A stretch of 32,000 nucleotides of DNA, taken from assembly GCA_021294815.2 (NCBI GenBank), contig CP095464.1, positions 420,001 to 452,000 on the forward strand, written 5' to 3'. The stretch is from Verrucomicrobiota bacterium. GTDB taxonomy: Bacteria > Verrucomicrobiota > Verrucomicrobiia > Opitutales > LL51. The notes under the pieces were generated by a model, which saw only the letters and a list, made by a program, of their open reading frames with translations, was not told where the DNA came from and did not search any database. Below are positions 702 to 17,241 of the stretch, piece by piece; position 1 is the first letter of the stretch, and each line of letters opens with the position of its first letter. The translations under genes were made by a program, and so were the position numbers.

Positions 702-880
702 CAACCGTCGCTTCGACGATCGTTTTATCGTGCGCACCGCGCCACCGGTACATAGCGCCCTTGTCCATAATCCCCTTCGACTCCGAGCACTACACACAGC
801 AACCAATAAAAAAACGCCCCTCCCTCAGGCAAGAAGGAAGGGGAAATTTATGGTTAGACAACCACTTTATCTATTAACGG

Positions 881-1837
881 TTACTGATCGATATCCCCGG
901 CAATTTCTTGCAAACGCCCAATCGAATCATTCAGATCCCACTTATTGCTGTCACTTTGAGTTTTTTCGAGTCCTTGTAATTTTTCAACAACCTCCTGAAT
1001 CCAGCTTTTGATCGCATGGTTACATGCTTTCTCGTCCTTCAAAAGCCCAGAAAGATCGAACCCAACCTGTGAACCATTTACCGTCAATGCCTCATCTGAA
1101 GCTAATATCGTACAAAAATTATCAACAACCCCGGTTAAGTGCTGCAGTTGTTTGCTGCTAGAGGCCTTCTTTATGGCAAAATTTATATCCTTGTACTTAT
1201 TGGGAAGCGAGCTAAACATCCCTTCGGTATCGAAAACTCGCCGCACACAATCTTTAAATGCCAGAAAGGATTCGAGAGAACTACATGAATCATGGACACC
1301 CTGATCCCGTAGACCCAAACGCATCAATAAAGAAACCAAAGTTGCGTCACAGGAGCGTACAGTCTCCGCAACCTTGGCTAGCCTATTTTTCCATTCCGTC
1401 GTGAGTTCCAGAATCTTTTCATTGCATTGCTCGAACTGACTCTGCAGTTTTGCCCGTTCTTCCGCGATTTCCTGTTGGTTTTGCTGGGCCTCATGTTCCC
1501 ACTGGTTTCGTTTTCTCTTGGCTACTAGGTAAAGCGATTTGGAGAATTTTAGCTTCCGACCTATGCGCGCCTTTTTGAATCCACCCGCCTGGAGGTGCTC
1601 ATTAACCAGAGTGCGCTTTTGGGCGTCGTCAATGCGATACTGGCTGGCCCATTGTTGAACCTTTTTAGTATTCTTGAGGAGTTTCTTTATCTCTTTCGCA
1701 TCCCAAGAATCGAAATTCTGATACTTACTGGCATATACCTCTAACGCCAGCAGCTTATTGAGCTCTTCATCGCTAATGGTATAGTTCCCAACAGGGATAT
1801 CGGAAGTTTCAATGTAATGATCAATGCTAATGTTCAT
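881..1837 (-). CDS. Coiled-coil family protein CC-1 (hypothetical, divergent N-terminus)
   Basis: 318-aa ORF whose ATG sits 6 nt after a -10 hexamer. It keeps the family box GRKLKFSKSLY and has a K/E/Q-rich heptad-like body. No signal peptide or TM segment. Confidence 0.8.
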   Translation of the reverse strand: MNISIDHYIETSDIPVGNYTISDEELNKLLALEVYASKYQNFDSWDAKEIKKLLKNTKKVQQWASQYRIDDAQKRTLVNEHLQAGGFKKARIGRKLKFSKSLYLVAKRKRNQWEHEAQQNQQEIAEERAKLQSQFEQCNEKILELTTEWKNRLAKVAETVRSCDATLVSLLMRLGLRDQGVHDSCSSLESFLAFKDCVRRVFDTEGMFSSLPNKYKDINFAIKKASSSKQLQHLTGVVDNFCTILASDEALTVNGSQVGFDLSGLLKDEKACNHAIKSWIQEVVEKLQGLEKTQSDSNKWDLNDSIGRLQEIAGDIDQ

Positions 1838-1843
1838 GGAGTA

Positions 1844-1871
1844 AGCATAACATTTTTACATATTTTGTAAA
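1844..1871 (-). promoter_or_regulatory. Sigma-70-type promoter predicting a leaderless CC-1 mRNA
   Basis: Minus strand reads TTTACA-16 nt-TATGCT-TACTCC-ATG. The -10 ends 6 nt before the start codon. Confidence 0.6.
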
Positions 1872-1966
1872 TAAATTATTTAAACTCTAGCGGCATTTAT
1901 TGATAAAATTTTCAACAACTTACATACAGAAATTGCTCTTGCTGGGGACTGCCAGGCCCCCAATAA

Positions 1967-2773: not shown

Positions 2774-2794
2774 AGTAAATTCCCCAATTGAAAG

Positions 2795-2823
2795 TGCATA
2801 GTCTCCGGAAACAATTATTGAAA
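2795..2823 (-). promoter_or_regulatory. Possible internal promoter for CC-2
   Basis: Minus strand reads TTTCAA-17 nt-TATGCA, then 21 nt containing GGGGA, then ATG. It is weaker than the family promoters and does not follow the leaderless geometry. Confidence 0.3.
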
Positions 2824-2833
2824 TTCCTGGACG

Positions 2834-4219
2834 CTAACCTACTTGATAACCAAAACAAAATCTCCCTTTGCTGCGCTCGAGAAAATCTCGGATTTTTTTA
2901 GCGACTTCAGGATTATCCTTGCTGATATTTTCTACCAAATCATCAAGACTCCTTTCCCTGGCGTTAAGGGATTTGCGGACGTCGTCAGTCGCTTTTTGCA
3001 ACCGGCTTGCGAGCCCACTAAATGCAGAATTATCATTATTTTTGGAAGGATCTCGCAAATGCGACTTCTCCTCGGGAATTGTCCCTTCAGAATCCACAAA
3101 CTCTTGAAACGCTATAAGGTTATTTTGCAGGTCAATTTTGCTATCGCTACCACCCTTGCCATTTAAAAAATTCTCAGCTTGCTTTATGTTTTCCTTGAGA
3201 TTGTCATATGGTTGCAGTTGCTCCTCCACCTGGAGGTAGAGTTGTTCTATTTTATTACGAATCCGGTTAATTTTTTGGATATGCGGATTACTGGCATCGT
3301 TTTTCCATTCTTTCGGAATATACGTTTGCATGGTATCGAGAAGTCTTTTCCTTCCATCACACATTGTTTTAATCTTCGAGCGACAGGTCTCTATACAGCC
3401 ACCGTAAGCTTTGCACTCTGTTTTAGCTCTTGGTAGCGTTGCTTGCAGCTCTTCCGCGCGCTTCTTAAAATCGTTGAGTGTATTTTGGAGGGCCGTAGCT
3501 TCATCGTCTAAATCTGTTATTATGCTATGATCTTCTTCAACGCCGAGTTTTTTGTCCATCGTGCTAATAATCCAGTTAAACCCTTTATTGATCGTGTCAT
3601 TTTCCTGTTTAAATTTGGATAATTCTTGATTCTTTAGCGCCATCGAGGCATCGACATTTTCTTGGAAAAAACGACAATTTTTGCGGACTGTTTCAATCGA
3701 AGTCATCTGTTCATCGAGTTTTTTCTGAATGGCGTCGCGCTGATCGATTATGCTTTTGAGCACAGTTATTCCTTGGGAATGAAGATTACTAATGGCGTCG
3801 TTAAGGGACTTAAGCTGATTGGAAAGTCTTGCACATGTCGCTTGGCGGCTCTCTGAGCGCTTATCGATTTCAACAACTGAGCCTCGAATTGCCTGCCAAG
3901 AAGAACGCATGGAATTGATCTCATTCCGCTCTTGCTGACGGTCCGTCCGAGCAGCGAGTAACTGATTTTTGACGAATTTTAATTTTCCCTTTTTGACTAC
4001 GAACGCGCCTCTCTTGACATAATCTTCCAAAAGGGGTTTCAGCCCTTCTTGATAGCCGGACTTATCGTTGATGATTTTTTTAGCGATTCCGCTCTGCCTG
4101 ACCGCGTCCAAGAAGCCCGCTTTTGACTTACCATCTATCATCGCCTTCTCCGAGGCCAGGAGCTTCGAAAGTTCCCACTGGCTGATGCGGCAGCTTGCTC
4201 CATTGATGTTGATGTCCAT
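2834..4219 (-). CDS. Coiled-coil family protein CC-3 (hypothetical)
   Basis: N-terminus MDININGASCRISQWELSKLL and box KGKLKFVKNQL. 461 aa, heptad-rich. It lies 40 nt downstream of CC-4 with no promoter-like hexamers, so it is probably co-transcribed. Confidence 0.85.
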   Translation of the reverse strand: MDININGASCRISQWELSKLLASEKAMIDGKSKAGFLDAVRQSGIAKKIINDKSGYQEGLKPLLEDYVKRGAFVVKKGKLKFVKNQLLAARTDRQQERNEINSMRSSWQAIRGSVVEIDKRSESRQATCARLSNQLKSLNDAISNLHSQGITVLKSIIDQRDAIQKKLDEQMTSIETVRKNCRFFQENVDASMALKNQELSKFKQENDTINKGFNWIISTMDKKLGVEEDHSIITDLDDEATALQNTLNDFKKRAEELQATLPRAKTECKAYGGCIETCRSKIKTMCDGRKRLLDTMQTYIPKEWKNDASNPHIQKINRIRNKIEQLYLQVEEQLQPYDNLKENIKQAENFLNGKGGSDSKIDLQNNLIAFQEFVDSEGTIPEEKSHLRDPSKNNDNSAFSGLASRLQKATDDVRKSLNARERSLDDLVENISKDNPEVAKKIRDFLERSKGRFCFGYQVG

Positions 4220-4259
4220 ATTAAAGTGAATCTGAAATTTGAATGTTTGTTCCGTCCCA

Positions 4260-5720
4260 TTAGGGATTCGTCTGGGCTGGCAATTTCTGTAGACCTTGCC
4301 ACATCTTGACGATCTCCCGCATGTCAGAATTCATTTTCGTGATAACCTCGTCAGGGATCTTGCGAAGACTCTGTTTTGCCGCGTCTTTTTCTTCTCGGAC
4401 CCGGTGATCGATTAATAGGAGAGTTGCATCTTCTCCATAACTTAAATCAAAATAACCCGAGTCTTCTTCATCCTCTGAATGATGATTTTCCTTCCAGTAA
4501 CACATGCATTTTCGAAACTCCTTAATCGTATTTTCCATCTCATCTTCAAGAGTCTTGATATTGCCACCTGCACCACGGATCTTTCGCTCCGAACACACAA
4601 TAGAATCTTTCGCAACATCAAACGAATGGAATTTTTCCACAAATCCGCTGAAAATTTTTTCGATATCCGCAAGGCCCTGGTTGATGGCCTGAAGTGATGG
4701 ATCTTTATCGGCAGAATTGAGATCTTGGCCTTGTATAAAAGATTTCATTGCCTCTAGATTCGCTTTTTCTTTGTCACACTTTGCCCGAAGCTTTTTTCGA
4801 GAGTCTTCGATCGCCTTGCCGTACTCGTCGAGTTCTTTTCGGTAGAGTTGAATTTCTTCCTTTACCTCAGGCTTCCATTGTGACTCCAGACTTGCCGTAA
4901 ACTCGTCGACCTGCGATTGTAAATCTTTCAGGGCCTTAGCACCTTCTGCGCCCAATTCTTTGTTGATCTGCGGGCCAAGTGGCTTAAGATATTCGTAGAT
5001 ATTATCGTCTACTTGCTGGTATTGTAACAAGTCTTTCTCTGTTAGTTCTGGCATTTCCAATGCGGCATTAACAGCGGGTTTAGCCATACGCAGGGCCTCA
5101 TCTGTTCGGCGAAGTTGTGTCTTCTTCGCCTCAAAATTCTTCAGAATGGTATCGAACTTCGTAGCGAGATCCCTTATTTCGTTTACTTCTTTCAAGCCAT
5201 TGAAACTCCCTCCTCGGTGCTGATCCGCTTTAGGCTTAAGTTGTCCAACAACATAATCCTTCGCCCCTTTGAGAAACTGTATTTTCAAGTCGAGTTCCTG
5301 ATACGCTTTCTGGCGTTGATCGAGCAGAGAGCGATATTCCTTAAAACCGCGCTGAACCCCTTGCCAATTGGCGATGTATTTATCCTTCCCGGGTTGCTCC
5401 TCCTGCTTTTTGAGGCGCTGCGTCTCTTCCTTGTATTGCGCCTCATCAATCTTCTGTTTCGCCCTCTTGAACTTTGTTTCGGAAAACTTGAACTTGTCCC
5501 CGTTGAAATCGAAACCGTCGTGGTTAATGTACTCACCCAGCTTTTTATAAAACGTCATTGCCTCTGCTGAATTCATTTGCATGCTCTTGATCTGGCGATA
5601 CTCATGGGCAACATTCCGAAAATTGACCTTCAGTCCCTTCTCCGCGACAGCGAATTTCGCCATCTCCCACTGCATTTGCCTGGTCTGAAAATTATTCCTG
5701 ATCTGCTCAACAACGCTCAT
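4260..5720 (-). CDS. Coiled-coil family protein CC-4 (hypothetical)
   Basis: N-terminus ...QTRQMQWEMAKFAV and box GDKFKFSETKF. 486 aa, K/E/Q-rich. The ATG lies 6 nt after the -10. Confidence 0.85.
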   Translation of the reverse strand: MSVVEQIRNNFQTRQMQWEMAKFAVAEKGLKVNFRNVAHEYRQIKSMQMNSAEAMTFYKKLGEYINHDGFDFNGDKFKFSETKFKRAKQKIDEAQYKEETQRLKKQEEQPGKDKYIANWQGVQRGFKEYRSLLDQRQKAYQELDLKIQFLKGAKDYVVGQLKPKADQHRGGSFNGLKEVNEIRDLATKFDTILKNFEAKKTQLRRTDEALRMAKPAVNAALEMPELTEKDLLQYQQVDDNIYEYLKPLGPQINKELGAEGAKALKDLQSQVDEFTASLESQWKPEVKEEIQLYRKELDEYGKAIEDSRKKLRAKCDKEKANLEAMKSFIQGQDLNSADKDPSLQAINQGLADIEKIFSGFVEKFHSFDVAKDSIVCSERKIRGAGGNIKTLEDEMENTIKEFRKCMCYWKENHHSEDEEDSGYFDLSYGEDATLLLIDHRVREEKDAAKQSLRKIPDEVITKMNSDMREIVKMWQGLQKLPAQTNP

Positions 5721-5726
5721 ATTGCG

Positions 5727-5754
5727 AGTATAGCATTATTGGTTAATTTGTAAA
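5727..5754 (-). promoter_or_regulatory. Sigma-70-type promoter predicting a leaderless CC-4 (CC-4/3/2 operon) mRNA
   Basis: Minus strand reads TTTACA-16 nt-TATACT-CGCAAT-ATG. It is preceded by the AT-rich TTAATATTTAT sequence shared with the promoter at 7115-7142; the promoter at 1844-1871 carries a variant (AAATAATTTAT). Confidence 0.65.
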
Positions 5755-5914
5755 TAAATATTAAATTACGTCATTCCATCCCTTCATTTTACAGCAGCTG
5801 CTCGCCAGAGGGCGGATCGGAGGATTTTTTTTGAAAACTCTCGGGTATTAATGGTTCTAAACCTAATTCCTCTGCGGAAGGCGGAAGCGGATAGTTGGAG
5901 GTCCCAAACGGTTC

Positions 5915-7108
5915 CTAAGAACTGAAGTCATATGGATCTAGTGGAATGAACCCTTCAAACGTATTCGCGTTGTCAGACGTGGTGGATTGCCATGAGGGAA
6001 TTTCACTGTCATACACAGGTTGCGCACTTTCTGCAACATCGAATGTCTGCTGATCATAGTTTTGTTCATCGGGCGACTCTGTCCCTTGGATATCTGGCAT
6101 TGAATTATCAACGTGTGCCTGCTGTGCTATTTCATTGGGGTTGAAAATTTCATTGGGGCTGAAAGATGGATCAAAGAAGAATTGGCCGTGTGGCATCCCG
6201 AACTCATCGAACGAATTCTCTGGCATAACAAAACCCTGATCGCCATATGGTGGAACCGCATTCACCTCATCGCTGACAAATGGAACCAATGGCGTGAAAT
6301 TATTCTCCCAGTCGTCCTCTTCTTGAGGAGAATGAGCGTACAACGATACAGCGTTTTGTACCTCAGCCTTATCCTCATAGGTCTTCAATTTTTGCTCAAG
6401 TTCCTCAATCCCACGTTCGATGGAGGAACAATCTTGCTGAACTTCCCAACTTCTATTACCAACTTTTTCCTCCAGATCCCTAATACTTTCGCGCTGTGTT
6501 TGAAGTTCTTCCATATTTCCCTGTACCAATACCTGCTTCCCTTCTTCGCATTTCTGTTGCAACTGACCTACTGATTGTTGCAATGCGCCAATTCTTGCTT
6601 GATGATAATCACTGTCTTGCGAAAGCCCGCGGTACGTATTCCAAAGCTCATAACGCTTACTGGAAAGTTCATGATGCTCTGTACTTCCCGTTTGCTCAAA
6701 AGGTTTTAACCTCGCATCAAGGGCTTCGAGTCGACTGCGAAAAGATTCAAGTTGCTCCGGATATTTATTGATATTACGGTTAATTATGCCGATTCTCTGT
6801 TCACAAAAATTCAAAGAATGCTGTAAATTCATTTTAGCATCCCGCAATTGTCGATAGGCTTCATCAGAAAACTGGAGTTTGGAAGCACCAAAAATATTTT
6901 TTGTTGTCACAAAGGCCTCTCTATTTTCGTTTAGCTGATCCTTGATGACATCACTCTTACCTCCCATTACCTTTATTGCAATATTAACAAGTTGTCCAAT
7001 CATAGCGAATGGGCCAACTTTTTCGCCTTGTTCAGCCTTTTGTGCAACAAACAACTTCGCCGCTTGTATCGCATTCGCCCGACCCCCTCCTTCGAGTGCA
7101 AACGTCAT
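5915..7108 (-). CDS. Coiled-coil family protein CC-5 (hypothetical) with acidic/aromatic C-terminal tail
   Basis: N-terminus MTFALEGGGRANAIQAAKLF, then GEKVGPFAMIGQL and GASKLQFSDEAY. The C-terminal tail carries DEQNYDQQTFDV..AQPVYD. It stops at TAG 5915-5917, but paralog-like sequence continues in frame to TAA at 5789-5791. Confidence 0.85.
   Translation of the reverse strand: MTFALEGGGRANAIQAAKLFVAQKAEQGEKVGPFAMIGQLVNIAIKVMGGKSDVIKDQLNENREAFVTTKNIFGASKLQFSDEAYRQLRDAKMNLQHSLNFCEQRIGIINRNINKYPEQLESFRSRLEALDARLKPFEQTGSTEHHELSSKRYELWNTYRGLSQDSDYHQARIGALQQSVGQLQQKCEEGKQVLVQGNMEELQTQRESIRDLEEKVGNRSWEVQQDCSSIERGIEELEQKLKTYEDKAEVQNAVSLYAHSPQEEDDWENNFTPLVPFVSDEVNAVPPYGDQGFVMPENSFDEFGMPHGQFFFDPSFSPNEIFNPNEIAQQAHVDNSMPDIQGTESPDEQNYDQQTFDVAESAQPVYDSEIPSWQSTTSDNANTFEGFIPLDPYDFSS
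6008..6073 (-). repeat. Conserved DNA segment encoding the shared C-terminal module (copy in CC-5)
   Basis: Aligned by eye to 7319-7384, about 56 of 66 nt are identical. It encodes ...DEQNYDQQTFDVAESAQPVYD. Confidence 0.7.
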
Positions 7109-7114
7109 ACATCC

Positions 7115-7142
7115 AGTGTAGTTTTATTGATTCATTTGTAAA
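7115..7142 (-). promoter_or_regulatory. Sigma-70-type promoter predicting a leaderless CC-5 mRNA
   Basis: Minus strand reads TTTACA-16 nt-TACACT-GGATGT-ATG. Confidence 0.6.
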
Positions 7143-7168
7143 TAAATATTAAATATTTAGAACTTAGG

Positions 7169-7894
7169 CTATTTAGAAGAAGGTGGAACCAACGGGGAAA
7201 GCGGCGTATCAGGTAAAGGCGGTAGCGGCGAAGGACCAAAGTCATCAGGGAACGACTCTGGATTCAACACCGATATATTACCTGTCACTGTAGGTTGTAA
7301 TTCCGGAAATGGCGATTCGTCGTACACAGGCTGCGCATCTTCTTCAACCTCGAATGTCTGTTGATCATAGTTTTGCTCGTCGGATAGAATGCTTTCCTTC
7401 GTATTTCCTGGTGCCACAGTGGGTTGCTGTTTCACGGAAGGTGGAATTTCCGAATTGTTTTGATTGTCGTATTCCCATTCTTCTTCGCTGAAGTCTTCTA
7501 AAAAGGGATCAAACGGATCATTTATGATATCATTGGGATCACCATTGAAAAGTGGATTCTCGTACTCCTCCCCCCAGTAATGTTCTTCATTGAAATTAGC
7601 CTCCTGAACTTCTCTCTCGGACTTCTCTGCCTCCAATTGGTCGTATTTGCTTTGTGAAAATTTAGGCTTCGATAGAAGAAACCTATCGCCTCCAACGAAA
7701 GCCGTCGCATACGTGTCCAATTCTTGCCGAGTCATACCGCCAGCGTTCTCTCCTTTAATCAGCTTTCTGGCATTCCCGAGCTGTTGATAAACGTCCCGAA
7801 ATCTAACCTTTTCTCCCGGTTGCGTTTGTTTAGTCGCTAACAATTTCGCCACCTGCCATGCACCCACATTTTTCCCATTAACTTTAAAATCCAC
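7169..7894 (-). CDS. Coiled-coil family protein CC-6 (hypothetical, short, acidic/Pro-rich tail)
   Basis: The tracked ORF starts at TTG 7915, but that would place the -10 hexamer inside the CDS. The GTG at 7894 gives (M)DFKVNGKNVGAWQVAKLL, which aligns with the paralog N-termini and sits exactly 6 nt after TATGCT. Box SKPKFSQSKY is present. The tail carries DEQNYDQQTFEVEEDAQPVYDE and ends PLPPLPDTPLSPLVPP. Confidence 0.8.
   Translation of the reverse strand: MDFKVNGKNVGAWQVAKLLATKQTQPGEKVRFRDVYQQLGNARKLIKGENAGGMTRQELDTYATAFVGGDRFLLSKPKFSQSKYDQLEAEKSEREVQEANFNEEHYWGEEYENPLFNGDPNDIINDPFDPFLEDFSEEEWEYDNQNNSEIPPSVKQQPTVAPGNTKESILSDEQNYDQQTFEVEEDAQPVYDESPFPELQPTVTGNISVLNPESFPDDFGPSPLPPLPDTPLSPLVPPSSK
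7319..7384 (-). repeat. Conserved DNA segment encoding the shared C-terminal module (copy in CC-6)
   Basis: See 6008-6073. This is the same module in the adjacent paralog. Confidence 0.7.
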
Positions 7895-7900
7895 GATTAA

Positions 7901-7928
7901 AGCATAACACCACAAGATAGTTTGTAAA
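7901..7928 (-). promoter_or_regulatory. Sigma-70-type promoter predicting a leaderless (GTG) CC-6 mRNA
   Basis: Minus strand reads TTTACA-16 nt-TATGCT-TTAATC-GTG. The -35 is the 3' end of a T7 tract preceded by CCTGTAAGGCG. Confidence 0.55.
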
Positions 7929-7932
7929 AAAA
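7926..7932 (-). repeat. Homopolymer tract (T7 on coding strand) fused to the -35
   Basis: The plus strand shows A7 between tgt and cgcc. This is the shortest of the four tracts at equivalent positions. Confidence 0.9.
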
Positions 7933-8325
7933 CGCCTTACAGGAAATTTTTACGTTTCTTCAGGGAAATTCAGCACTAAAGTGGTCAACATAGAATGGGC
8001 TCGCGCTCACTCAAATAAAAATAGGTCGAATGCTTACAGGCGATTTTGAGACTGAAAAACGAGTTAAAGAAACTCATTCTCTGCCATTCCCCTGTAGGTT
8101 TTATGGAGATTATCTTAGATCATTTTTTACAAAAGGCACCCTAGGCCTTCGCGCTATCATTTTTCAAGTTGACTTTTTTATAAGTGGAAAATTTCCATTA
8201 ACTGGAATTTTTCCATCTCGTCAAACTAATAGCTCAAGAGCCTGTCTACCAACTGACTCCGAAGCATAAAGTTCTTGGGTTCTAGTTATTTAGAGTTTTC
8301 ATGAGCGGGCAGAGTTTTAGGAGCC

Positions 8326-9385
8326 CTAGTAGGCGCCCTTAATCTGTGACTCTTCTGCTGTCCATATGTCACCATCCGGATCAAATGCCTGTTGATCGTA
8401 GGACTACTCATTTGTTAAGACGTTGGCACCATCAGAGGCGCTTCTGATAATGCCCCCTATCGACATGCACTACCCCATCGGCCCCCAGCCCTCGTCCACA
8501 CCAGGAGCATCGTTGAAATCGGAGTCGTTAATATTAAGCTCTTGGTTTATCAGTGGCTCGGAAGGGACATCCTTCATGTTGGGATCGTTTTCATCTGGAA
8601 CAAACATAGGGGCATCTGCGTTGGGATCTTGTGACAGTTGCTTAAACGCTTCGTCCGCGGTGTCTTTTCCCAACAATCCTTCCAACTGAGTTTTCAACTG
8701 CTCGAACATCTTTATCGCGGATGAACACAAATCCGCGCCGGTCTCTTTGAGCTTATCTTTAGCTATATTTAATCCTGCTATCATTTTATCGCAGTCGCCT
8801 TGTAGGTCTGAAATTTGTTCTTGCGGCAGCTGACGATCTTTGACACTAGTGACCAAACCATCAAATCCCTGACAGAGGTTCGAAAAAGTTGTGAGCAACG
8901 ATCGAATTTCTTCCTGAGAAGCAAAGTTTGGTCTTGTTGCAATAGCCCCCACGTGCTGCTCATATCCCTTTAGCTTCTCCCCTGTCTCCTTCAGAGACTC
9001 AAGTTTTTGATCCCACCCCAGTTTTTCATTACGCAACTCGTGGCACTTTGCTTTATTCAGTTTCAAAGCAGTCTTTCCTTTTTCTGAAGTCAAAGCCCCC
9101 TGCTTTAACATACGCTAACACTATATTGCCAATATTGTCTATTTTGTCCCGCTCCTTCTGGCTTAACCCGCTTAACCCGACTTTATCCGCTTTTTTGAGT
9201 AAGCGACTGATAATGAAGCTTTTGATGCCCTGTTTAATGCGCGCAAAGGGACCAGGTCGTTTACCTTTTAGCTCTTTATTCGTGATTAGGCTTTTTGCCA
9301 CTTCTTTCGCGCTGATATCTCCAATCTTCTCCTCCCCCTGTGTAACAGTAAATCCCCTCGGGCCAACTGCTATTCTGAAATCCAT
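8326..9385 (-). pseudogene. Decayed coiled-coil family member CC-7 (one frameshift, two in-frame TAG)
   Basis: ORF 9053..9385 (MDFRIAVGPRGF...KRPGPFARIKQG...YVKAGGFDF) and ORF 8470..9111 (...EKGKTALKLNKAKCHE...) are two halves of one paralog. They are joined by a 1-nt frame change at the A5 run (plus-strand T5, 9079-9083). After TAG 8470-8472 the same frame continues ...ANVLTNE-TAG(8404-8406)-SYDQQAFDPDGD..., which matches the DEQNYDQQTF tail of CC-5 and CC-6. It ends at TAG 8326-8328. Confidence 0.75.
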
Positions 9386-9391
9386 ATTTGA

Positions 9392-9419
9392 AGTATAACT
9401 TTATAAAGCAATTTGTAAA
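9392..9419 (-). promoter_or_regulatory. Sigma-70-type promoter with leaderless geometry upstream of CC-7
   Basis: Minus strand reads TTTACA-16 nt-TATACT-TCAAAT-ATG. The -35 ends a T12 tract preceded by ATGTAAGGCG. Confidence 0.55.
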
Positions 9420-9428
9420 AAAAAAAAC
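9417..9428 (-). repeat. Homopolymer tract (T12 on coding strand) fused to the -35
   Basis: Plus-strand A12 run. Confidence 0.9.
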
Positions 9429-9709
9429 GCCTTACATAAACTTTTTTAACCTTCTTGCGAATAACCTCAAGTTTCAGGCTATTGAAAAATAAGCAGATAC
9501 TTCTCTCACATAAAGAAAGGTCCCCTCCCTGGTATTTTTAAATGCTTTTGGGGAAACCGTCATCAGTCGATGATGCTTTTCAATGGGAAACTTTAACTCA
9601 CTATCGGGCATTAAGATTCCTCTAACGGCGACCTTTGAAATCCCGCGAAGAATTTTATCAATTGGAATCTTTGAAAACCCTTATTTTCATACTGAGACTT
9701 TATGTCGTA

Positions 9710-11983
9710 CTAATTTTTTCCTAACATCTCCTTAATCTCTTGGCATACTTTATGGAATGCTTCATAGTTTTGAGCAAAATCTTCATTCGTCCCATTCAAG
9801 CCTGCTACGTTGCTATTATATGCCTGCTCGATCTTTTGTTTACTTTGCTCGATAAGCTCCTGTAATTGCTCCAAATTAACCAAAAGTTCCTGGCCTTCAG
9901 TCGATTCTAATTCACCCTCATCTGAAGGTTCAACTGCGGATCTGGTGATTTCTGCGAGTGTTGCAGCATAGCCGATTGATCTATCAATTTGAGCCTTATC
10001 CCTATCAATTAAAATTCGACACCCTGCTGGCGTCTTCAGCAGTTCCGTTTCCAGAGCGCTCAGCTTTTCCATACACGCCTGTTGTAGTGGTTCAATTTCT
10101 TGATTTTTCTTTTTTACTTCATCTGAATCGCTCTTGAACCGCTTGTGGACCTCTGCAAACTTTTGTATAACCTCGTGATCGATCGTCACATCGGCCGTTC
10201 GAAATTTCTCCTTAGCACTATAGCAGTCGCTATAAACGGATTTTGCTTGCCGACTTGTTTCCTGGATACCCGCTTGTAAATCATCGGAGGCTTTGACAAA
10301 AGCATCATAAAGCGATTGGATATTGTCGGGTAATGTTTTGCCGTCAGATAATAGGTTATCGATAGCACCCTTAAAATCCTCCGCAGTTTGAACGTGTTGT
10401 GCATGTATCGCATTAGCCTTTTCTACATTGGTCTTGATTGCTGTATTGAATGCGTTGAGCTGCCTCCACGAAGCGGTTGAAGTACTGGCCTTCAGCCTTG
10501 ATAATGATTTCTTTTCGCTTCTCCCTTGTGGGGCGATTCGACTCAGAAGCCCAATGTTCTGATCTATATCCTTGCAGAATTTCTCAATATCCTGAATCCT
10601 TCTTGAATCGCCGATTTTTAGCTGCTCAAGTTGAGCTTCGTACTCTTTTATGGTTTGCTCAACTCCCAAAGCAAATTCCTGACGGGTTTCAGTTTTATAC
10701 GTCTCCAACTCGCCATATTCCTTTTCTAAGGCTTTCTGAAAATCTGGATCATCCAAAGCCAAAGTTGCAAATGCCTTCAGTGCAGCTTCATGATGTGCAC
10801 AAATTTCGTCAAAATTTTTATTCCATTCTTCTTGTTTAGCTTTAAATCGGTCAAGCTTTGTCTGTGGCAGTGATTGGGCGTACTGCTTGAGCCCGCTGAG
10901 CGCAGTTTCGGCATTAGTCATTTTACCTTGAAGCCTTGATATCTTCCTATTCACATCCTCCTTTATCTGCCCCATACTTTGGTCCGTATTGGCAAAGAAC
11001 TCAGAAACTTTCTGAAAATCTGGTGATTTTTCAAAATCTTTGCTTGGTTTGGCGTGTCCTAGTCGACGAATGGCATCCTCTATACCTTGGAGTGGATTCG
11101 CGAAATCTGAAGGTTTCCTATAAGCGGCATTTTCAAGATCTATAACTGCTCCACGTTGCGCCTCTCTCAGATTTGCGTACCCCACTTTTAGTTGATCTTG
11201 TAACTGCGCTTTTTTCTCCGGGTCAGTTTCGTTGCCAATAAGCTTTTCAAGTTCATTGAACTCCGCTGTCATGAGTTCGCACTTCTGTGATAATTCCGCC
11301 TCATATCGTTCTTCGAGATCATTGATTTGCTCATAGCATTGATTTAACTTTGTTTGGAAATCATTACATTTGTTCTTAAGGGCCGCTTGGTATTTTGCCG
11401 CCGTCTGTTCAACTTCCTTTTTAAAACTTTCAATTCGCTTAGGAATTTCCTGAATCACGTTTTGGAGTACCCGAAGCTTCTCTTTATCGTTGTTGACCTG
11501 CTTAGGATCATTTTTTAGAAGATTTTGTCCGACGAAAAGGTTCAGGTTCTTTTTAAGCTCTTTAATATCAGCGAGCATTTGGTTAAATTGGTTGATTTGC
11601 ACCTGTGTCATCACATGTTGATTATCCTGAACAAGCTGATTTAAGTCATTCACATATGCACTGGCACTCGATTTTATATCGTACGAACCATGAACAAAAT
11701 CGTTCACAACCTTCATGCCGTCCTTCACCTGCTTTTGCTCATTTTCCCATGCCTTTTCAAAACCCTCTTGATTGAATTTCCCAGCTTTAAAAGCACTCAA
11801 GCCAAATCTTTCGATATTCGCTTCTACAGAAGCTCTGCTGCCATTCTTAAGCTTAAAAAATTGCCCTATGGTCGTAGAAGACATTTTAAATTTACCGCCA
11901 CAAGCCTCACGATTTTTCCTCTCAATCGCCGATGTTAGCCTTGCCGCCTGCCACCGACTGACACCCCCAATCATTTCTCCCAT
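9710..11983 (-). CDS. Coiled-coil family protein CC-8 (hypothetical, largest member, 757 aa)
   Basis: N-terminus MGEMIGGVSRWQAARL matches the G-x-x-x-W-Q/E-x-A-K/R-L motif. The long K/E/Q-rich body has no TM segment or signal peptide. The ATG lies 6 nt after the -10. Confidence 0.85.
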   Translation of the reverse strand: MGEMIGGVSRWQAARLTSAIERKNREACGGKFKMSSTTIGQFFKLKNGSRASVEANIERFGLSAFKAGKFNQEGFEKAWENEQKQVKDGMKVVNDFVHGSYDIKSSASAYVNDLNQLVQDNQHVMTQVQINQFNQMLADIKELKKNLNLFVGQNLLKNDPKQVNNDKEKLRVLQNVIQEIPKRIESFKKEVEQTAAKYQAALKNKCNDFQTKLNQCYEQINDLEERYEAELSQKCELMTAEFNELEKLIGNETDPEKKAQLQDQLKVGYANLREAQRGAVIDLENAAYRKPSDFANPLQGIEDAIRRLGHAKPSKDFEKSPDFQKVSEFFANTDQSMGQIKEDVNRKISRLQGKMTNAETALSGLKQYAQSLPQTKLDRFKAKQEEWNKNFDEICAHHEAALKAFATLALDDPDFQKALEKEYGELETYKTETRQEFALGVEQTIKEYEAQLEQLKIGDSRRIQDIEKFCKDIDQNIGLLSRIAPQGRSEKKSLSRLKASTSTASWRQLNAFNTAIKTNVEKANAIHAQHVQTAEDFKGAIDNLLSDGKTLPDNIQSLYDAFVKASDDLQAGIQETSRQAKSVYSDCYSAKEKFRTADVTIDHEVIQKFAEVHKRFKSDSDEVKKKNQEIEPLQQACMEKLSALETELLKTPAGCRILIDRDKAQIDRSIGYAATLAEITRSAVEPSDEGELESTEGQELLVNLEQLQELIEQSKQKIEQAYNSNVAGLNGTNEDFAQNYEAFHKVCQEIKEMLGKN

Positions 11984-11989
11984 GGACCC

Positions 11990-12017
11990 AGTATATTTCC
12001 ATACAGCAATTTGTAAA
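11990..12017 (-). promoter_or_regulatory. Sigma-70-type promoter predicting a leaderless CC-8 mRNA
   Basis: Minus strand reads TTTACA-16 nt-TATACT-GGGTCC-ATG. The -35 ends a T15 tract preceded by CCTGTAAAGCG. Confidence 0.6.
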
Positions 12018-12029
12018 AAAAAAAAAAAA
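12015..12029 (-). repeat. Homopolymer tract (T15 on coding strand) fused to the -35
   Basis: Plus-strand A15 run. Confidence 0.9.
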
Positions 12030-12166
12030 CGCTTTACAGGAAAATTTTATAATTTCATTAATAATCTCACACTCTAAGTCATAGAATAAACAACTCACCT
12101 GCGCCCCGAAACGAGCATTCGTGCATCAATACAACCTAAATAACTTTCTCAAACAAGCCAATTTGT

Positions 12167-12303
12167 TTACATCTTAATCGACGATGTAACCTGCAATACA
12201 CTCGTAATCACACTTAAGGCGAGGATCGCGACGCCAACAAAGGCACAGCCGCTATAGCTATTGCTGCTTTGATATCTCTGATTTCTCTTTTGCCTTGTTG
12301 CAT
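12167..12303 (-). pseudogene. Truncated copy A of the gspF 3' end (last TM helix)
   Basis: 12167-12250 encodes GCAFVGVAILALSVITSVLQVTSSIKM*, which is identical to the GspF C-terminus. I count 5 nucleotide differences, all synonymous third positions. Upstream of 12250 a 2-nt insertion breaks the frame (AIAIA.. vs AIAMG) and similarity fades. Confidence 0.8.
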
Positions 12304-12308
12304 GTTGT

Positions 12309-12987
12309 CTAGCTTAAAAGAGGCAACGGCATCAAAGGGAGACTTTGAATGCTATACGATAACGTTGAACCGTCTTCGAGCGTGACTTTATTCTTTTCTT
12401 CAGCCATGGGTATAAGATTATTCAATGCCTCCGCCAGATCGTTGTATGCTTCTACCATAGCGTAATCTTCTTTAAGAACATTGTTATACTCATCGCGAAT
12501 AGTTGTATTCGTCTCTTGAGAACATTTTGCATCATCTGCATCTAGAGACTGTCCTATCTGATCAATTTTGCTTTGATATGTCGTAATTTTCGCTGACAGT
12601 TCCCGATACTCTTGAGAGTCTTCGCTCAGGTTTAGTGCCTTTAGTGTATTTTGAAGTGGTGCAAGATTCCTTGATGCTTTTCCTTAATCTCTTTGGTTGC
12701 ATTCGCTACCTTTTCCGCTTTTATCACATCATACTCTGATCTTACAAATTGAAGCTTTGAAGTTCCAAATATACCGTTTGTAGTGGGCTGGAAAGAACGC
12801 TCATACAAATTTAGTTTCTTCTCGATAGCAGCACGATCGCCCTTGATCAATTTTATTCCAATATTTATAGGCTGCTTGATCGTCGAGAGTGTATTGCTTC
12901 TCCCTATATTTGGGTTTTCTTCTGCAGCCAAAACTTAGCCGTCTCCCATGCGCTAACTTTACCACCACTCTCGAGCTTAAAGGACAT
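12309..12987 (-). pseudogene. Decayed coiled-coil family member CC-9 (at least two frameshifts)
   Basis: ATG 12987 gives MSFKLESGGKVSAWETAKF, then the frame breaks at the T4 run (plus-strand A4, 12930-12933). Tracked ORF 12641..12931 continues ...IGIKLIKG...GTSKLQFVRSEY (cf. CC-5). A third frame then carries ...LNLSEDSQEYRELSAKITTYQSKIDQ... to TAG 12309-12311. The promoter geometry is kept but the hexamers have decayed (ATTTAA-16-TTAACT-6-ATG, 12994-13021). Confidence 0.7.
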
Positions 12988-13198
12988 AAGTCGAGTTAAT
13001 GCCACACGACGTACTTTAAATCAATAACACATTTATTTACATTTTTAACCTATACCCAAATATGCGATCGCATTTCGTAGAAATTTTGTGTTCGTGTAAT
13101 ACAACTTCGCATTCGACCTTAGCCACCTGTCTTTTTACAGAAGGCCTTGTTAAAAATGCTACGCAAATGATGTAGAATGCGGTTCGACTATCTCCGTT

Positions 13199-13399
13199 TT
13201 ACATCTTAATCGAAGAGGTAATTTGCAAGACACCCGCAACGACGCTCGCGACGCCGACAAAGGCACAGCACATGGCTATGGCCGTGACTATACTCGACAT
13301 CATGTTGAGGTCGTTCATCAGGACCCCGTGATACTTCTTGTAGACGCTGCTCAGAAAATCTGCGAATCGATATTCTTGCAAATTGGCAGGCGAGCTCAC
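13199..13399 (-). pseudogene. Truncated, more diverged copy B of the gspF 3' end
   Basis: The tracked 66-aa ORF ends ...SSVYKKYHGVLMNDLNMMSSIVTAIAMCCAFVGVASVVAGVLQITSSIKM*. This is clearly homologous to GspF ...KSVYKKYHGDLINDLNMMSSAVTAIAMGCAFVGVAILALSVITSVLQVTSSIKM*, with a 4-codon gap. Nothing upstream corresponds to the rest of GspF. Confidence 0.75.
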
Positions 13400-13466
13400 A
13401 CCGTGATAACGTTTAAAACTTATGAAATTACAGAACTCGCACCAGCATCAATTACATGAGATGCTA

Positions 13467-15278
13467 CTACCATCCAAATCTCTGTCTCTTATTGGATCTT
13501 TCCGATTGTTTCCCAATTTTAGCAAACAAATCTTTCATTGCTTGGGGTGCCTCTGTTAGCAATGCTTGTATTGTGTCTTTAGGTACCTCTTTCAGTACTT
13601 CTTCCAAAATACCAGCTACATTCGCCCGATATTCCGTAAATAGCCCTTGAATATTCTCGTCTAGTTTTGCAAAAGTATTTCTGAATTCCGTAACCGTTTG
13701 CTCAACTGCTTTTTCACTCTCTTGAATTTCCCTAATATTTCCGCTTCCAATAAGACTTTCTAAATGCTCAATTGCGCTTTGAACCTTGCTCTTTGCCTGA
13801 TTGTATGATTGAAAATTGTTCGCAAATCGATCATAAGCCTCTTTAAGTTTTTGAATACCTTCTTCGAACTTTTGGGTATTGTGCGCGCCACTTTTAAGCT
13901 CCTCTAAATAGCCTATGGGAGCATCGTGGAATGGTTGAACATAACTCATGTAAGAATCCATGGAAGACGTGCATCCTTCACATGTGGCTTTAGCTGCGTC
14001 AAGATCTTGTTGGAGCATTTGCCTCAATTGCTCATTAAGATTCGTTTTTAGTTGATCAATTGCTGGTTGCAGTTTGGACTCACCCAAATGCTCAATTTCC
14101 TGTTGAATTTGACGGAACTGCTCAAGTATAAAAGCGTCTTGTCTTTGTAATTCAGCCTCATCTATGTTATCAGCTGACATTAGTTGGCTCTGCGAAGTGT
14201 TAATGCTCGCCTGAAGTAGCTGAAGTTTATTGGAGATTTCATTGGCCGCACTTTGTTGCTGTTGTAGCTTGTCTGCAACGGTGTTGTGTTGCTCATTAAG
14301 CTTGCTCAGAGTTTCCGTCCCCTGAAGTTTTTGGCCAACGTAATTCTTGAGATCCTGAAGCGACATCAGTTGCTCTTGAAGGTTTGAGCAACTTTTCTGG
14401 AGAGTTTTCAAAGAATTTTCCTGAGTACCTACATTTGCTCGTAACTGATCCCATTTCGATGCGTATAGGTCCCTAATTTGCTGGTTTTTAAGGTTTTGTA
14501 AGTCCGTTTTCAGCGCGTTGATTTCGGCCTGAAGGGATATCCCTTCTGCACCACCGAATGTCTTATTGATTTCATGGCCAATCTGCCCAACTTTCTCATG
14601 TATTGCTTCATCAAATTGCTGGCAAACAGACAAATTCTGATCTTGCGTAGGGGCCGTTTCGAAAATGTTCTGTCTCACATTATTGAGGTCCGCATTAAAC
14701 CGTGCTACAGATTTGTTTTGTTCCCTGATTTTATTTAGGAGTTCCTGATACCGGTTATTAATTTTGCTTAGTTTGTCTGCATACTTCGATCCCTCGGGAA
14801 CGCTGATCGCGTTCTTTTCTTCCTCAAACGATTTCAGTTGTCCTTCAAGTCCTAAACAATTCTTCTGTTGGTCGCTCAAAAAAGTCTCAAATTCCCCAAC
14901 GGCGTTTTGAAAATTGTCCCATTCTTTATGGTACTGGTCTTTGCGATCTTTAATTTGTTGCTGTGCGATATGATGCTGTTTATTTTTCATCTCCACTGTC
15001 TGGTTATACCCTGAACGAGAAAAATAGGGTATATCTATCTTTTTCCCGAACAAACTAATCGTCGCTTTTTTAAAAGTCTCAGTTTCAGCATACTTTTGTA
15101 GGTCTCCGTAAAATTTCCGCCCCTCGTCAGAGTACGGATTTTTTCGTGCATTTCTAACAGTTTTAAAATATGCCTTGATAACGTCTACGGAAAAGACGTT
15201 TTCTGGATTATACGATCGAGCTGCTGTAAATATCGCAGCGTTTAAACCGCCAACTCGCTTGTTGAGGTTTTCTACCAT
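13467..15278 (-). CDS. Coiled-coil family protein CC-10 (hypothetical)
   Basis: N-terminus ...RVGGLNAAIFTAAR and box LFGKKIDIPYFSRSGY align with the family. 603 aa, Q/E/K/N-rich. Unlike its siblings it has a leader of about 50 nt. Confidence 0.85.
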   Translation of the reverse strand: MVENLNKRVGGLNAAIFTAARSYNPENVFSVDVIKAYFKTVRNARKNPYSDEGRKFYGDLQKYAETETFKKATISLFGKKIDIPYFSRSGYNQTVEMKNKQHHIAQQQIKDRKDQYHKEWDNFQNAVGEFETFLSDQQKNCLGLEGQLKSFEEEKNAISVPEGSKYADKLSKINNRYQELLNKIREQNKSVARFNADLNNVRQNIFETAPTQDQNLSVCQQFDEAIHEKVGQIGHEINKTFGGAEGISLQAEINALKTDLQNLKNQQIRDLYASKWDQLRANVGTQENSLKTLQKSCSNLQEQLMSLQDLKNYVGQKLQGTETLSKLNEQHNTVADKLQQQQSAANEISNKLQLLQASINTSQSQLMSADNIDEAELQRQDAFILEQFRQIQQEIEHLGESKLQPAIDQLKTNLNEQLRQMLQQDLDAAKATCEGCTSSMDSYMSYVQPFHDAPIGYLEELKSGAHNTQKFEEGIQKLKEAYDRFANNFQSYNQAKSKVQSAIEHLESLIGSGNIREIQESEKAVEQTVTEFRNTFAKLDENIQGLFTEYRANVAGILEEVLKEVPKDTIQALLTEAPQAMKDLFAKIGKQSERSNKRQRFGW

Positions 15279-15334
15279 CGCATCGTACTCCCGATTAGGG
15301 ACAAAACCTCCTGCTGGGCCAATTCCAGAGCTCG

Positions 15335-15362
15335 TGAATATAAATTAATATTATTCTTGCAA
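15335..15362 (-). promoter_or_regulatory. Possible promoter for CC-10 (leadered)
   Basis: Minus strand reads TTGCAA-16 nt-TATTCA about 55 nt upstream of the ATG. GGGAG lies 9 nt before the ATG. Confidence 0.3.
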
Positions 15363-15622
15363 CTTACAAACAAATACATAATATACGTTGCCGATTGCTC
15401 GTATACTAGAGCGCGTTTTGGCAAGTCGCTACATAAGATGTCACAATACTATCCTTTCCCTGATAAAACCCAGTATGTTACTTAATAAGAGGCCTTCAAA
15501 ATTTTATTAAAGGCTTGATAGGTATGCTGGTGTACGATCAAATGCTTAAGCTCTTTTGGTGGTGATTACAAACTCCTGCCAAAAACTAAATCACTCTTCC
15601 AAGGAAGCCAAACCCAAAACCG

Positions 15623-15763
15623 CTACATCTTAATCGACGATGTAACTTGTAAGACGCTGGTGATTACACTCAAGGCGAGAATCGCGACACCGACGAAGGC
15701 ACAGCCCATGGCGATGGCCGTGACCACACTCGACATCATGTTGAGGTCGTTGATCAGATCCAT
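15623..15763 (-). pseudogene. Truncated copy C of the gspF 3' end (46-codon ORF)
   Basis: It encodes MDLINDLNMMSSVVTAIAMGCAFVGVAILALSVITSVLQVTSSIKM*. Compared codon by codon with gspF I count 14 synonymous differences and 1 replacement (A->V), plus TAA->TAG. The ATG is created at the truncation junction. Confidence 0.8.
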
Positions 15764-15931
15764 AGAAACATCACGCTTTGATTAAGCAGCGATTTTAAGA
15801 GAACTTACCCCATCACGCTCCACTAGGAATCGGGGTATTACCGAAATTGGGATCATTTTTGCACAAAGGAACTCCCTTCCTTTGATTGCGCTATCACATT
15901 GAGTTCAGTCACCCGGCGAAAAATTATTGAT

Positions 15932-17053
15932 CTATGCATTGGAAGTTCCACCGTCAAATAGCCTTATTTTGTCTTTTATTGAGAGTTTCTCAGCAGCCAT
16001 CTGCTGTTTCTCTGTCTCTGGTGTCTCCGTTTTTCCCGATTCCAGAGTTACAGGTTTTTCGGGTTTTGCTATCTCCTCTTTTATGTCTGTAGATGCAAAG
16101 CCCCGCCGACTATAATTTTGATCGTCTGAGATGCTTTTATCTTGTAGTGTCTCGGCTGTGTTTTCAGATGTTTTTTCCATTAGACGGCCCTCAAAATATT
16201 CCTCCGAGCATCCTTGCTCTTGATCCTGTATTAATGGATCAAATATTTCTGGATCAATTTCACCACCAACCCAAAGCGGCGGTTCGCCATTATTTTGAAG
16301 AGTTGTCTCCTCATTAGTTATCTGTTGAGGCCCGGAAGTATTTATCTCCGGCGTGGTTTGACTGTTTAACAAATCGTCGTATTGATTAATTAAAAGCTGA
16401 GTTGCTGTATTCATAGCGTCCATGGCATTGAATCGCTCCTTATCGGTATAACTCTTATAGACATATCTCCTTTCATATGGACTTGCGAAATAAGTAGCGC
16501 CGGAGCCAATAGCGGTAGCGTATGAAAATTTCCGGCCATTAGCTTCTATATACTGCTTTTCCGGAAGGAGCTTCTTCCATTCTTTGCCAAACTTGGCGTC
16601 TAATTGAGCTTCTTTTGTTTCTTTTTGTCGCCTCAATGCTTCAAATTCTTGCTTTAGTTCATGAAACTTATTTATGGACTCTAGTCCTTTACTCTGGAAT
16701 GTTGTCCGGAGTACACTTTTGTTCATCTTCCATCTCGTTTTCGAAAAAGCCTTTGTCTTAAACGCTTCTAGAGGTAACTCATCTAACAAGTTCTGCACCG
16801 CCTGCCCTATAGCGATTTCCTGACCTTGCTTATCCTGTATCAATTTCCCATTTTTAATTGCTGAGCATAACCGTATAGCCGCAAAGGGCCCCTTCCCGGC
16901 AAGCGCTTGAGCACTCTTATCTCCGAGTTTTGCCAGCTCAACAACAATTTTCGCCGCATCCCGTTTATCAATATCATAGCTAGGACCGAACGCCTCCGAT
17001 CTACGAAACTTATACGTGCCCCAATTGGTATTACTAGCCCCGCTAACACTCAT
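15932..17053 (-). CDS. Coiled-coil family protein CC-11 (hypothetical) with acidic C-terminal tail
   Basis: It carries GKGPFAAIRL (cf. CC-5 KVGPFAMIGQL, CC-7 RPGPFARIKQG) and a helical K/E-rich middle. The acidic tail has DDQNY, a weak match to the DEQNYDQQ module. The ATG lies 6 nt after the -10. Confidence 0.8.
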   Translation of the reverse strand: MSVSGASNTNWGTYKFRRSEAFGPSYDIDKRDAAKIVVELAKLGDKSAQALAGKGPFAAIRLCSAIKNGKLIQDKQGQEIAIGQAVQNLLDELPLEAFKTKAFSKTRWKMNKSVLRTTFQSKGLESINKFHELKQEFEALRRQKETKEAQLDAKFGKEWKKLLPEKQYIEANGRKFSYATAIGSGATYFASPYERRYVYKSYTDKERFNAMDAMNTATQLLINQYDDLLNSQTTPEINTSGPQQITNEETTLQNNGEPPLWVGGEIDPEIFDPLIQDQEQGCSEEYFEGRLMEKTSENTAETLQDKSISDDQNYSRRGFASTDIKEEIAKPEKPVTLESGKTETPETEKQQMAAEKLSIKDKIRLFDGGTSNA

Positions 17054-17059
17054 AAGTTG

Positions 17060-17087
17060 AGTATAAATTTACAGAGAGATTTGTAAA
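17060..17087 (-). promoter_or_regulatory. Sigma-70-type promoter predicting a leaderless CC-11 mRNA
   Basis: Minus strand reads TTTACA-16 nt-TATACT-CAACTT-ATG. The -35 ends a T14 tract preceded by CCTGTAAAGCG. Confidence 0.6.
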
Positions 17088-17098
17088 AAAAAAAAAAA
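17085..17098 (-). repeat. Homopolymer tract (T14 on coding strand) fused to the -35
   Basis: Plus-strand A14 run. Confidence 0.9.
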
Positions 17099-17241
17099 CG
17101 CTTTACAGGTAAATTTTATAATTTCTCGCTGGTAAACTCAAACGTCGAGCCGAAAATTAAACACATCACCCCAACGGCAAAGGTCTGATATTCGCATATG
17201 AGCCAAATCTAACCAACTCTCTCAAACAAAAGCTAGCTTGT

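Follow-up and report, generated by a model that had tools for sequence, protein, structure and literature searches.

A conserved promoter module with a length-variable T tract at the -35 hexamer of paralogous coiled-coil genes in a reduced-genome verrucomicrobial bacterium

Introduction

Classical upstream (UP) elements, such as that of Escherichia coli rrnB P1, consist of A/T-rich DNA at about -40 to -60, with a consensus that is A-rich on the non-template strand, and in the fim2/fim3 genes of Bordetella pertussis a poly-C tract lies between the BvgA site and the -10 element, overlapping the -35 region. In Helicobacter pylori sabA, a T tract stands at the -35 element with A-box, UP-like DNA upstream, and its slippage leads to a multiphasic output with a periodicity of ~10 bp (PMC4081817); the length of this tract varies in vivo, and strains range from T5 to T28 (Aberg et al. 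2014, PMC4081817). In the tpr family of Treponema pallidum, the promoters carry poly-G tracts of differing length, whose effect is combined with that of a site for the CRP homologue Tp0262 (PMC7864442). Here we describe T tracts that are fused to the -35 hexamers of four genes (CC-6, CC-7, CC-8 and CC-11) of an orphan coiled-coil family, in a 32-kb stretch of a Verrucomicrobiota genome (contig CP095464.1, positions 420,001 to 452,000) that we refer to as the window.

These tracts were the subject of an original prediction, which proposed that they are prone to slippage and could make individual members of the family phase-variable. It appealed to upstream repeat tracts as an established device, for which sabA, with a T tract acting in this way at the -35 element, does provide a precedent (PMC4081817). 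We find that the four tracts belong to one promoter module with a strict register, that this module is conserved in related genomes, and that the tract is its sole length-variable part.

Results

The T-tract promoters

All coordinates refer to the plus strand of the window; tracts, boxes and genes lie on the minus strand. In gene orientation, the module comprises a 29-nucleotide (nt) box, a poly-T tract, the -35 hexamer TTTACA, a 16-nt spacer, the -10 hexamer TAYRCT, 6 nt and the start codon. The promoters of the family in the window are:

1835..1871, minus strand: CC-1 promoter, AT-rich-block type
5718..5754, minus strand: CC-4 promoter, AT-rich-block type
7106..7142, minus strand: CC-5 promoter, AT-rich block instead of box and tract
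7892..7928, minus strand: CC-6 core promoter, TTTACA-16-TATGCT-6-GTG
7926..7932, minus strand: CC-6 tract, site ...GAAGAAACGTAAAAATTTCCTGTAAGGCG-T7-ACAAACT...
7933..7961, minus strand: CC-6 box, GAAGAAACGTAAAAATTTCCTGTAAGGCG
9383..9419, minus strand: CC-7 core promoter
9417..9427, minus strand: CC-7 tract, site ...AAAAAAGTTTATGTAAGGCG-T11-ACAAATT...
9428..9456, minus strand: CC-7 variant box, ...AAAAAGTTTATGTAAGGCG
11981..12017, minus strand: CC-8 core promoter, TTTACA-16-TATACT-6-ATG
12015..12029, minus strand: CC-8 tract, site ...GAAATTATAAAATTTTCCTGTAAAGCG-T15-ACAAATT...
12030..12058, minus strand: CC-8 box, 98% identity with the CC-11 copy across 41 nt
17051..17087, minus strand: CC-11 core promoter, TTTACA-16-TATACT-6-ATG
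17085..17098, minus strand: CC-11 tract, site ...GAGAAATTATAAAATTTACCTGTAAAGCG-T14-ACAAATC...
17099..17127, minus strand: CC-11 box, 29 nt, GAGAAATTATAAAATTTACCTGTAAAGCG

The tracts are pure T runs of 7 (CC-6), 11 (CC-7), 15 (CC-8) and 14 nt (CC-11). The lengths given originally, 7, 12, 15 and 14 nt, are correct for CC-6, CC-8 and CC-11; the CC-7 tract (9417-9427) is one nucleotide shorter than claimed, because base 9428 is the last G of the box GCG. The architecture is otherwise as it had been described. At all four promoters the TTT of the -35 TTTACA is formed by the final three T of the tract, and at all four sites the box directly abuts the tract (...AAATTTCCTGTAAGGCG, ...AAGTTTATGTAAGGCG, ...AAATTTTCCTGTAAAGCG and ...AAATTTACCTGTAAAGCG), so that the proposed position of the tract between a conserved box and the core promoter is exact. 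At the other three promoters, an AT-rich block replaces both box and tract, with the sequence TTAATATTTAT at CC-4 and CC-5 and AAATAATTTAT at CC-1. The claim that the tracts are long enough to slip also held: the hypermutable length, about 9 nt or more without interruption, is reached by T11, T14 and T15 as well as by the T9-T19 tracts of relatives, with the T7 of CC-6 being borderline.

The core promoters are in a strict register. Where 0.00 matches to the pattern TTTACAAA-N14-TAYRCT-N6-RTG would be expected in the window, 7 were found, and these are all seven family promoters, aligned without a single indel; the same seven occupy the top ranks of a sigma-70 promoter scan. In all of them the -35/-10 spacer measures 16 nt, with the tracts lying upstream of the -35. 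Since the distance from the -10 hexamer to the start codon is an invariant 6 nt, leaderless transcripts are the natural reading for the family, and the NCBI annotation (P0034) likewise starts CC-6 at the GTG that the promoter positions. With the start codon taken as +1, a T15 tract extends from -46 to -32 and the box from -75 to -47, centred at -61. Computed geometry gives the rotation of the box relative to T15 as 86 degrees for T7, 154 for T9, 223 for T11 and 137 for T19.

The box has the consensus GAGAAATTATAAAATTTnCCTGTAARGCG, formed by an A/T-rich half and a CCTGTAAAGCG half. Allowing up to one mismatch, CCTGTAARGCG occurs in the window only before three of the tracts; the CC-7 variant differs from it by two mismatches. 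When compared with the A-box of the sabA type, the box holds a conserved AAATTATAAAATTT, while its CCTGTAAAGCG half is not A/T-rich.

Chance is no explanation for the T tracts. Homopolymers of more than 8 nt are found in the window only at CC-7, CC-8 and CC-11, the CC-6 tract measuring 7 nt. A/T runs of 11 nt or more number 3, where a first-order Markov model of the window predicts 0.23; for runs of 14 nt or more, the same transition probabilities yield about 0.01 expected against 2 observed. The only other homopolymer of 8 nt is an intergenic A8 (gene strand) at 5825-5832, between CC-5 and the promoter of CC-4.

The module in related genomes

The module recurs in four or five independent assemblies of close relatives, namely a metagenome-assembled genome (MAG) from ENA and Logan assemblies. 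Relatives are annotated as Opitutales or Puniceicoccales. The tracts of the module are:

L006 (ENA MAG): T9, T19
L034 (Logan SRR33454264): T16
L035 (Logan SRR30592964): T15, T16
L001/L002 (Logan SRR30592952/SRR30592954): T14, T16, at least T12 at a contig end, plus a boxless T7

In the gspF-sufCB region, L006, L034 and L035 are 94-96% identical to the window. The contigs of L001/L002 lie inside the island described below, and their relatedness was judged from island genes: between their orthologue of CC-11 and the window copy, identity is 66% for the protein and 82% for the DNA. Together with those of the window, the boxed tracts (n=11) have lengths of 7, 9, 11, 14, 14, 15, 15, 16, 16, 16 and 19 nt, and all are pure T. 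Four pairs of promoters are homologous:

L034 vs L035b: T16 = T16, flanks 97% identical
L001a vs L035a: T14 vs T15, flanks 90% identical
CC-11 vs L001b: T14 vs T16, flanks 82% identical
CC-6 vs L006a: T7 vs T9, flanks 70% identical

Three homologous pairs thus differ by one or two T, a modest change, and the closest pair is identical; the comparison is one between related genomes rather than between strains of one species, and the assembled lengths of 14-19-nt tracts may err by 1-2 nt. Indels in the module, both among paralogs and between homologous promoters, are confined to the tract. That all length variation of the module falls inside the tract is the signature of slippage.

Two contigs from different runs of one project break at tracts, L002 starting exactly at a T16 (1-16) and L001 ending inside a T run (4458-4469). 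As a k-mer or de Bruijn graph would break where tract lengths are mixed, these ends may hint at length heterogeneity. The same two contigs carry a promoter with a T7 fused to TTTACAAAT and no box (L001 3415-3421, L002 1114-1120; upstream ...AAATTTTATGTGATA), showing that box and tract are separable.

A pattern scan of genome collections returned 22 loci, among which only L006 is a true relative; the other loci, including five from Legionella, are chance or unrelated matches with an interrupted T run. Five matches from a pattern scan of metagenomes were all due to chance. A further locus with orthologues of CC-2, CC-3 and CC-4 (L036) contains no promoter of interest, and a length difference of A10 to A9 between the distant relatives L037 and L038 turned out to be a substitution and not slippage.

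To gauge the constraint on the individual parts of the module, seven copies were aligned from the gspF stop codon (or the stop of a gspF remnant, see below) to the start codon, and mean pairwise identities were computed. Identity is highest in the box (0.84); it is lower in the gspF remnant (0.72), the core promoter (0.62) and the ~110-nt spacer before the box (0.51), and reaches 0.38 where the coding sequence begins. With 84% against 51% in the neighbouring spacer, the box constitutes a phylogenetic footprint and is not merely a recent copy. The tracts are uninterrupted in 11 of 11 boxed copies, although their flanks have diverged by 10-50%; such purity amid diverged flanks requires either selection or a continual turnover by slippage. 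A tract that evolved like the adjacent spacer would not have stayed uninterrupted in all 11 copies.

The gene family and its island

The four genes downstream of the tracts are:

7169..7894, minus strand: CC-6, 241 residues, GTG start
8470..9385, minus strand: CC-7, frameshift near 9053-9111
9710..11983, minus strand: CC-8, 757 residues
15932..17053, minus strand: CC-11, 373 residues, orphan coiled-coil family

The paralogs share only a weakly conserved N-terminal domain of ~90 residues, with the pattern W[EQ]xAK[LF]...GF...GKxKFS. CC-11 and GspF are 100% identical to proteins encoded on an 878,461-bp contig of the NCBI MAG 'Verrucomicrobiota bacterium' LW808. For the family proteins scanned, Pfam yielded no family above the curated threshold. 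An exhaustive profile search against 1.84 billion representative proteins gave only 15 matches at E-values up to 0.001, mostly from the same genome or close relatives, and two weak matches were clearly unrelated. No match was obtained in a word-indexed profile search with the family N-termini, the AlphaFold model of the N-terminal domain (pLDDT 72.7) had no fold match in the PDB with E<1, and exact-product look-ups of CC-11, SufC, CC-8, P0001 and P0044 found nothing on record. The family is fast-evolving and appears to be modular, its members having the N-terminal domain and a C-terminal tail in common and differing in the coiled coil that joins them. CC-5 and CC-6 have in common an 86% identical stretch (6008-6072, 7319-7383) that encodes the C-terminal motif DEQNYDQQTF[DE]V..AQPVYD; CC-11 has a related motif, SDDQNYSRRGF, and the C-termini of the family are acidic and proline-rich. 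CC-9 (12309-12985) is broken by a stop codon and frameshifts, and both CC-7 and CC-9 are either decaying paralogs or products of assembly indel errors.

In the window, gspF (17242-18456) and ruvC (162-806) are 16.4 kb apart and enclose CC-1 to CC-11 (806-17242). In distant relatives, whose GspF is 57-69% identical, ruvC follows gspF directly with a gap of 46 nt (L028, L037-L040), and one locus, L025, has a single family gene of 274 residues between the two. As gspF and ruvC are adjacent in distant relatives, the CC-1 to CC-11 cluster represents a lineage-specific expansion island. The T tract is absent from the gspF-ruvC loci of these distant relatives (L025, L028, L037-L040).

The window holds four copies of the terminal ~135 nt of gspF, namely the true end and three remnants with 62-89% identity:

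12168..12304, minus strand: gspF 3'-end remnant, upstream of the CC-8 promoter
13188-13324: gspF 3'-end remnant
15624-15760: gspF 3'-end remnant
17243-17379: true gspF 3' end

The island grew by segmental duplication, in which the gspF 3' end, the intergenic region and the promoter were copied as a unit. By their sequence, the remnants look like duplication scars and recombination substrates; some of them retain an open frame of 46-66 codons for the last transmembrane helix of GspF. L034 and L035, whose housekeeping DNA is 97.6% identical, differ by one cassette consisting of promoter, gene and gspF-3' remnant. This cassette is bounded by gspF-3' repeats, and several Logan contigs end in such repeats. 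Between L006 and the window, which are ~94% identical elsewhere, the gene content of the island differs sharply.

A second set of unusual paralogs is located at 20670-22127, 22503-23891 and 24064-24864. Its 485-residue protein contains five MgtE_N stretches (PF03448, E = 3.6e-34); the open reading frames beside it have similar repeated 'LQLF/RLxLW' motifs, and none has a transporter domain.

Discussion

We read the tract as a slippage-prone spacer and UP-like element that governs how far from the polymerase, and in which helical phase, the box stands, with a graded effect as at sabA, a reading to which we give about even credence. The four tracts represent one conserved promoter module that was spread by segmental duplication inside a lineage-specific island. 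At about -46 to -32, the tract would occupy the position of the proximal UP-element subsite, where the C-terminal domain of the RNA polymerase alpha subunit (alpha-CTD) could contact it; as a rigid spacer it would also hold box and polymerase at a set distance and rotational phase. The box itself may be a UP-like element or an activator site, with its centre near -61 at T15. Runs of 11-19 T would slip at replication, letting the promoter strength of each paralog drift or switch independently; the effect of length would be graded and roughly 10-bp periodic, as in H. pylori sabA, rather than strictly on/off, and selection would keep the majority of active copies close to an optimal length of 14-16 T. 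We infer that tract length affects transcription and that populations are heterogeneous in length; population-level phase variation is plausible, and 'phase-variable' is a putative label. A more far-reaching form of this mechanism seems doubtful to us: slippage would switch or tune each paralog singly by rotating a factor bound at the box (near -61 at T14-16, in the manner of a class-I activator), a clonal symbiont population would display shifting combinations of leaderless coiled-coil proteins, and recombination between gspF 3' ends would add and remove cassettes.

Several observations weigh against the favoured reading, the first two of them against a fast on/off switch. Seven of the 11 boxed tracts measure 14-16 nt, a clustering which suggests that the tract behaves as length-constrained rather than freely switching, and the closest homologous pair (L034 vs L035b, with 97% identical flanks) has the same length, T16. 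Stabilising selection on length, as for a tuned spacer or a rheostat, accounts for both findings no less well than free on/off switching does. Contig breaks at homopolymers can also result from sequencing or polymerase chain reaction slippage or from loss of coverage. Further, the family proteins have no signal peptide or recognisable function, which does not speak for the surface or antigenic role that is usual for contingency genes.

The main rival explanation builds on the same findings. It takes the tract as a static promoter element that selection maintains, at once a strong UP-like A/T stretch and a fixed spacer; slow slippage would shift its length within tolerated limits, and it would have no adaptive role in switching or tuning. 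We consider this a possibility to be taken seriously, if only tentatively. Lengths that cluster at 14-16 across diverged genomes and two T16 tracts in the closest pair agree with it, and three sister promoters have a non-repetitive AT-rich block at the same place, so that A/T-richness itself may be what matters. In addition, the genes with short tracts look decayed, CC-7 (T11) being frameshifted and CC-6 (T7) having a GTG start in a leaderless context, which fits a shrinkage of the tract once selection relaxes. However, a non-repetitive AT block would give UP function without the mutational cost, and pure tracts of T14-19 in at least nine loci are left unexplained by a static role. A pure homopolymer of such length inevitably yields length variants at appreciable rates, and in sabA length changes of a few nucleotides alter the output (PMC4081817). 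That box and tract are alike only as functionless legacies of recent promoter copying appears improbable to us. The duplication of gspF 3' end, intergenic region and promoter as a unit, with four copies of the gspF 3' end in the window, and the whole-cassette difference between L034 and L035 make such a legacy conceivable, yet within one duplicated unit the spacer has decayed to 51% while the box stands at 84%, none of the 11 tract copies is interrupted, and the module has been kept where the downstream genes are only 34-66% identical.

The T run might also end an intrinsic terminator that serves the upstream gene, or might separate the hexamers of a second promoter overlapping the first, an idea to which we assign very little probability. 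The run does follow an upstream gene or gspF remnant in each case, and with 14-16 T the TGTAAA of the box and TACAAA would be 16-18 nt apart. The terminator is ruled out by a terminator scan, which finds none at any tract, and by RNA folding, in which segments of 95-106 nt ending at the tract form no hairpin that abuts the U run (z-scores -0.5 to +1.1). An overlapping or divergent second promoter fails on poor and non-conserved hexamers: TGTAAA shares only 3 of its 6 bases with TTGACA, TACAAA has no T at -7 and is absent from the promoter scan, and the TATAAT on the opposite strand of the box, a potential divergent -10, is not conserved in CC-6, L006a and L006b. Phase variation of the spacer type was rejected as well, as the tract stands upstream of a -35/-10 spacer that is always 16 nt long. 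Long homopolymers are error-prone on all sequencing platforms, and the 878-kb contig suggests long-read data; even so, mis-called homopolymers are a barely credible source of the tracts, since four short-read assemblies from Logan, an ENA MAG and an NCBI MAG all show them at one and the same place in the promoter. Their recurrence in at least 5 assemblies disposes of an artefact as far as the existence of the tracts is concerned, and it is only the exact lengths that are uncertain, by 1-2 nt, which is a further point against the favoured reading.

Were each paralog singly switched or tuned by slippage of its own tract, no earlier contingency-locus system is known to us from Verrucomicrobiota, and this one would rest on leaderless genes; in the literature searched, we found nothing relevant on slipped-strand mispairing in Verrucomicrobia, nor under the run and accession identifiers. 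If tract length tunes these promoters, a small-genome bacterium with few regulators would in this way diversify the expression of a fast-expanding, lineage-specific protein family by a purely mutational device. The rheostat of the sabA type would be extended from Helicobacter to the Planctomycetes-Verrucomicrobia-Chlamydiae (PVC) superphylum and to leaderless genes, and the orphan coiled-coil proteins would be marked as likely factors of host or environment interaction. For practical purposes, the module (box, T(n) and TTTACAAAT) is a precise sequence tag for members of the family, and it provides defined loci at which tract-length heterogeneity can be sought at the level of reads in public runs.

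Comparison with known systems

With classical UP elements, the CC module shares A/T-rich DNA directly upstream of the -35, its T tract covering the position of the proximal subsite. UP elements are, however, neither homopolymeric nor length-variable, and the CC promoters are T-rich on the non-template strand. A promoter homopolymer that changes by slippage in genes of variable surface proteins is also found in Mycoplasma hyorhinis vlp (poly-A), Neisseria porA (poly-G) and T. pallidum tp0126, but there it is placed between the -35 and -10 hexamers, so that slippage changes the length of the spacer, which is an invariant 16 nt in the CC promoters. In fim2/fim3, a homopolymer parts an activator site from the core promoter of paralogous genes and slippage alters the geometry between activator and polymerase; the differences are that the fim tract is poly-C and its activator known, whereas in the CC module the -35 is intact and an activator is hypothetical. 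The tpr family of T. pallidum resembles the CC family in that each paralog has a promoter homopolymer of differing length, inherited with the duplicated promoter. Its tracts are poly-G of 7-11 nt just upstream of the transcription start site, and in tpr the variation and its effect on expression have been shown experimentally.

The system that the CC module most resembles is sabA. The similarity extends to a pure T tract directly at the -35, to A/T-rich DNA upstream, which in the CC module is a candidate UP-like element, and to tract lengths in a similar range (T5-T28 between strains in sabA, T7-T19 in the CC module). As the -35/-10 spacing is untouched in both, any effect of tract length must come through upstream contacts and DNA geometry. 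The two differ in that the sabA type occurs on unrelated outer-membrane protein genes and the CC module on several paralogs of one family. Moreover, the CC genes are leaderless, their box includes the non-A/T sequence CCTGTAAAGCG, which looks more like a protein-binding site, and the module is that of a reduced-genome verrucomicrobium. A device of this kind is already known; what is new here is the lineage, the leaderless targets, the conserved non-A/T box and its presence on paralogs of an orphan family in a cassette-shuffling island.

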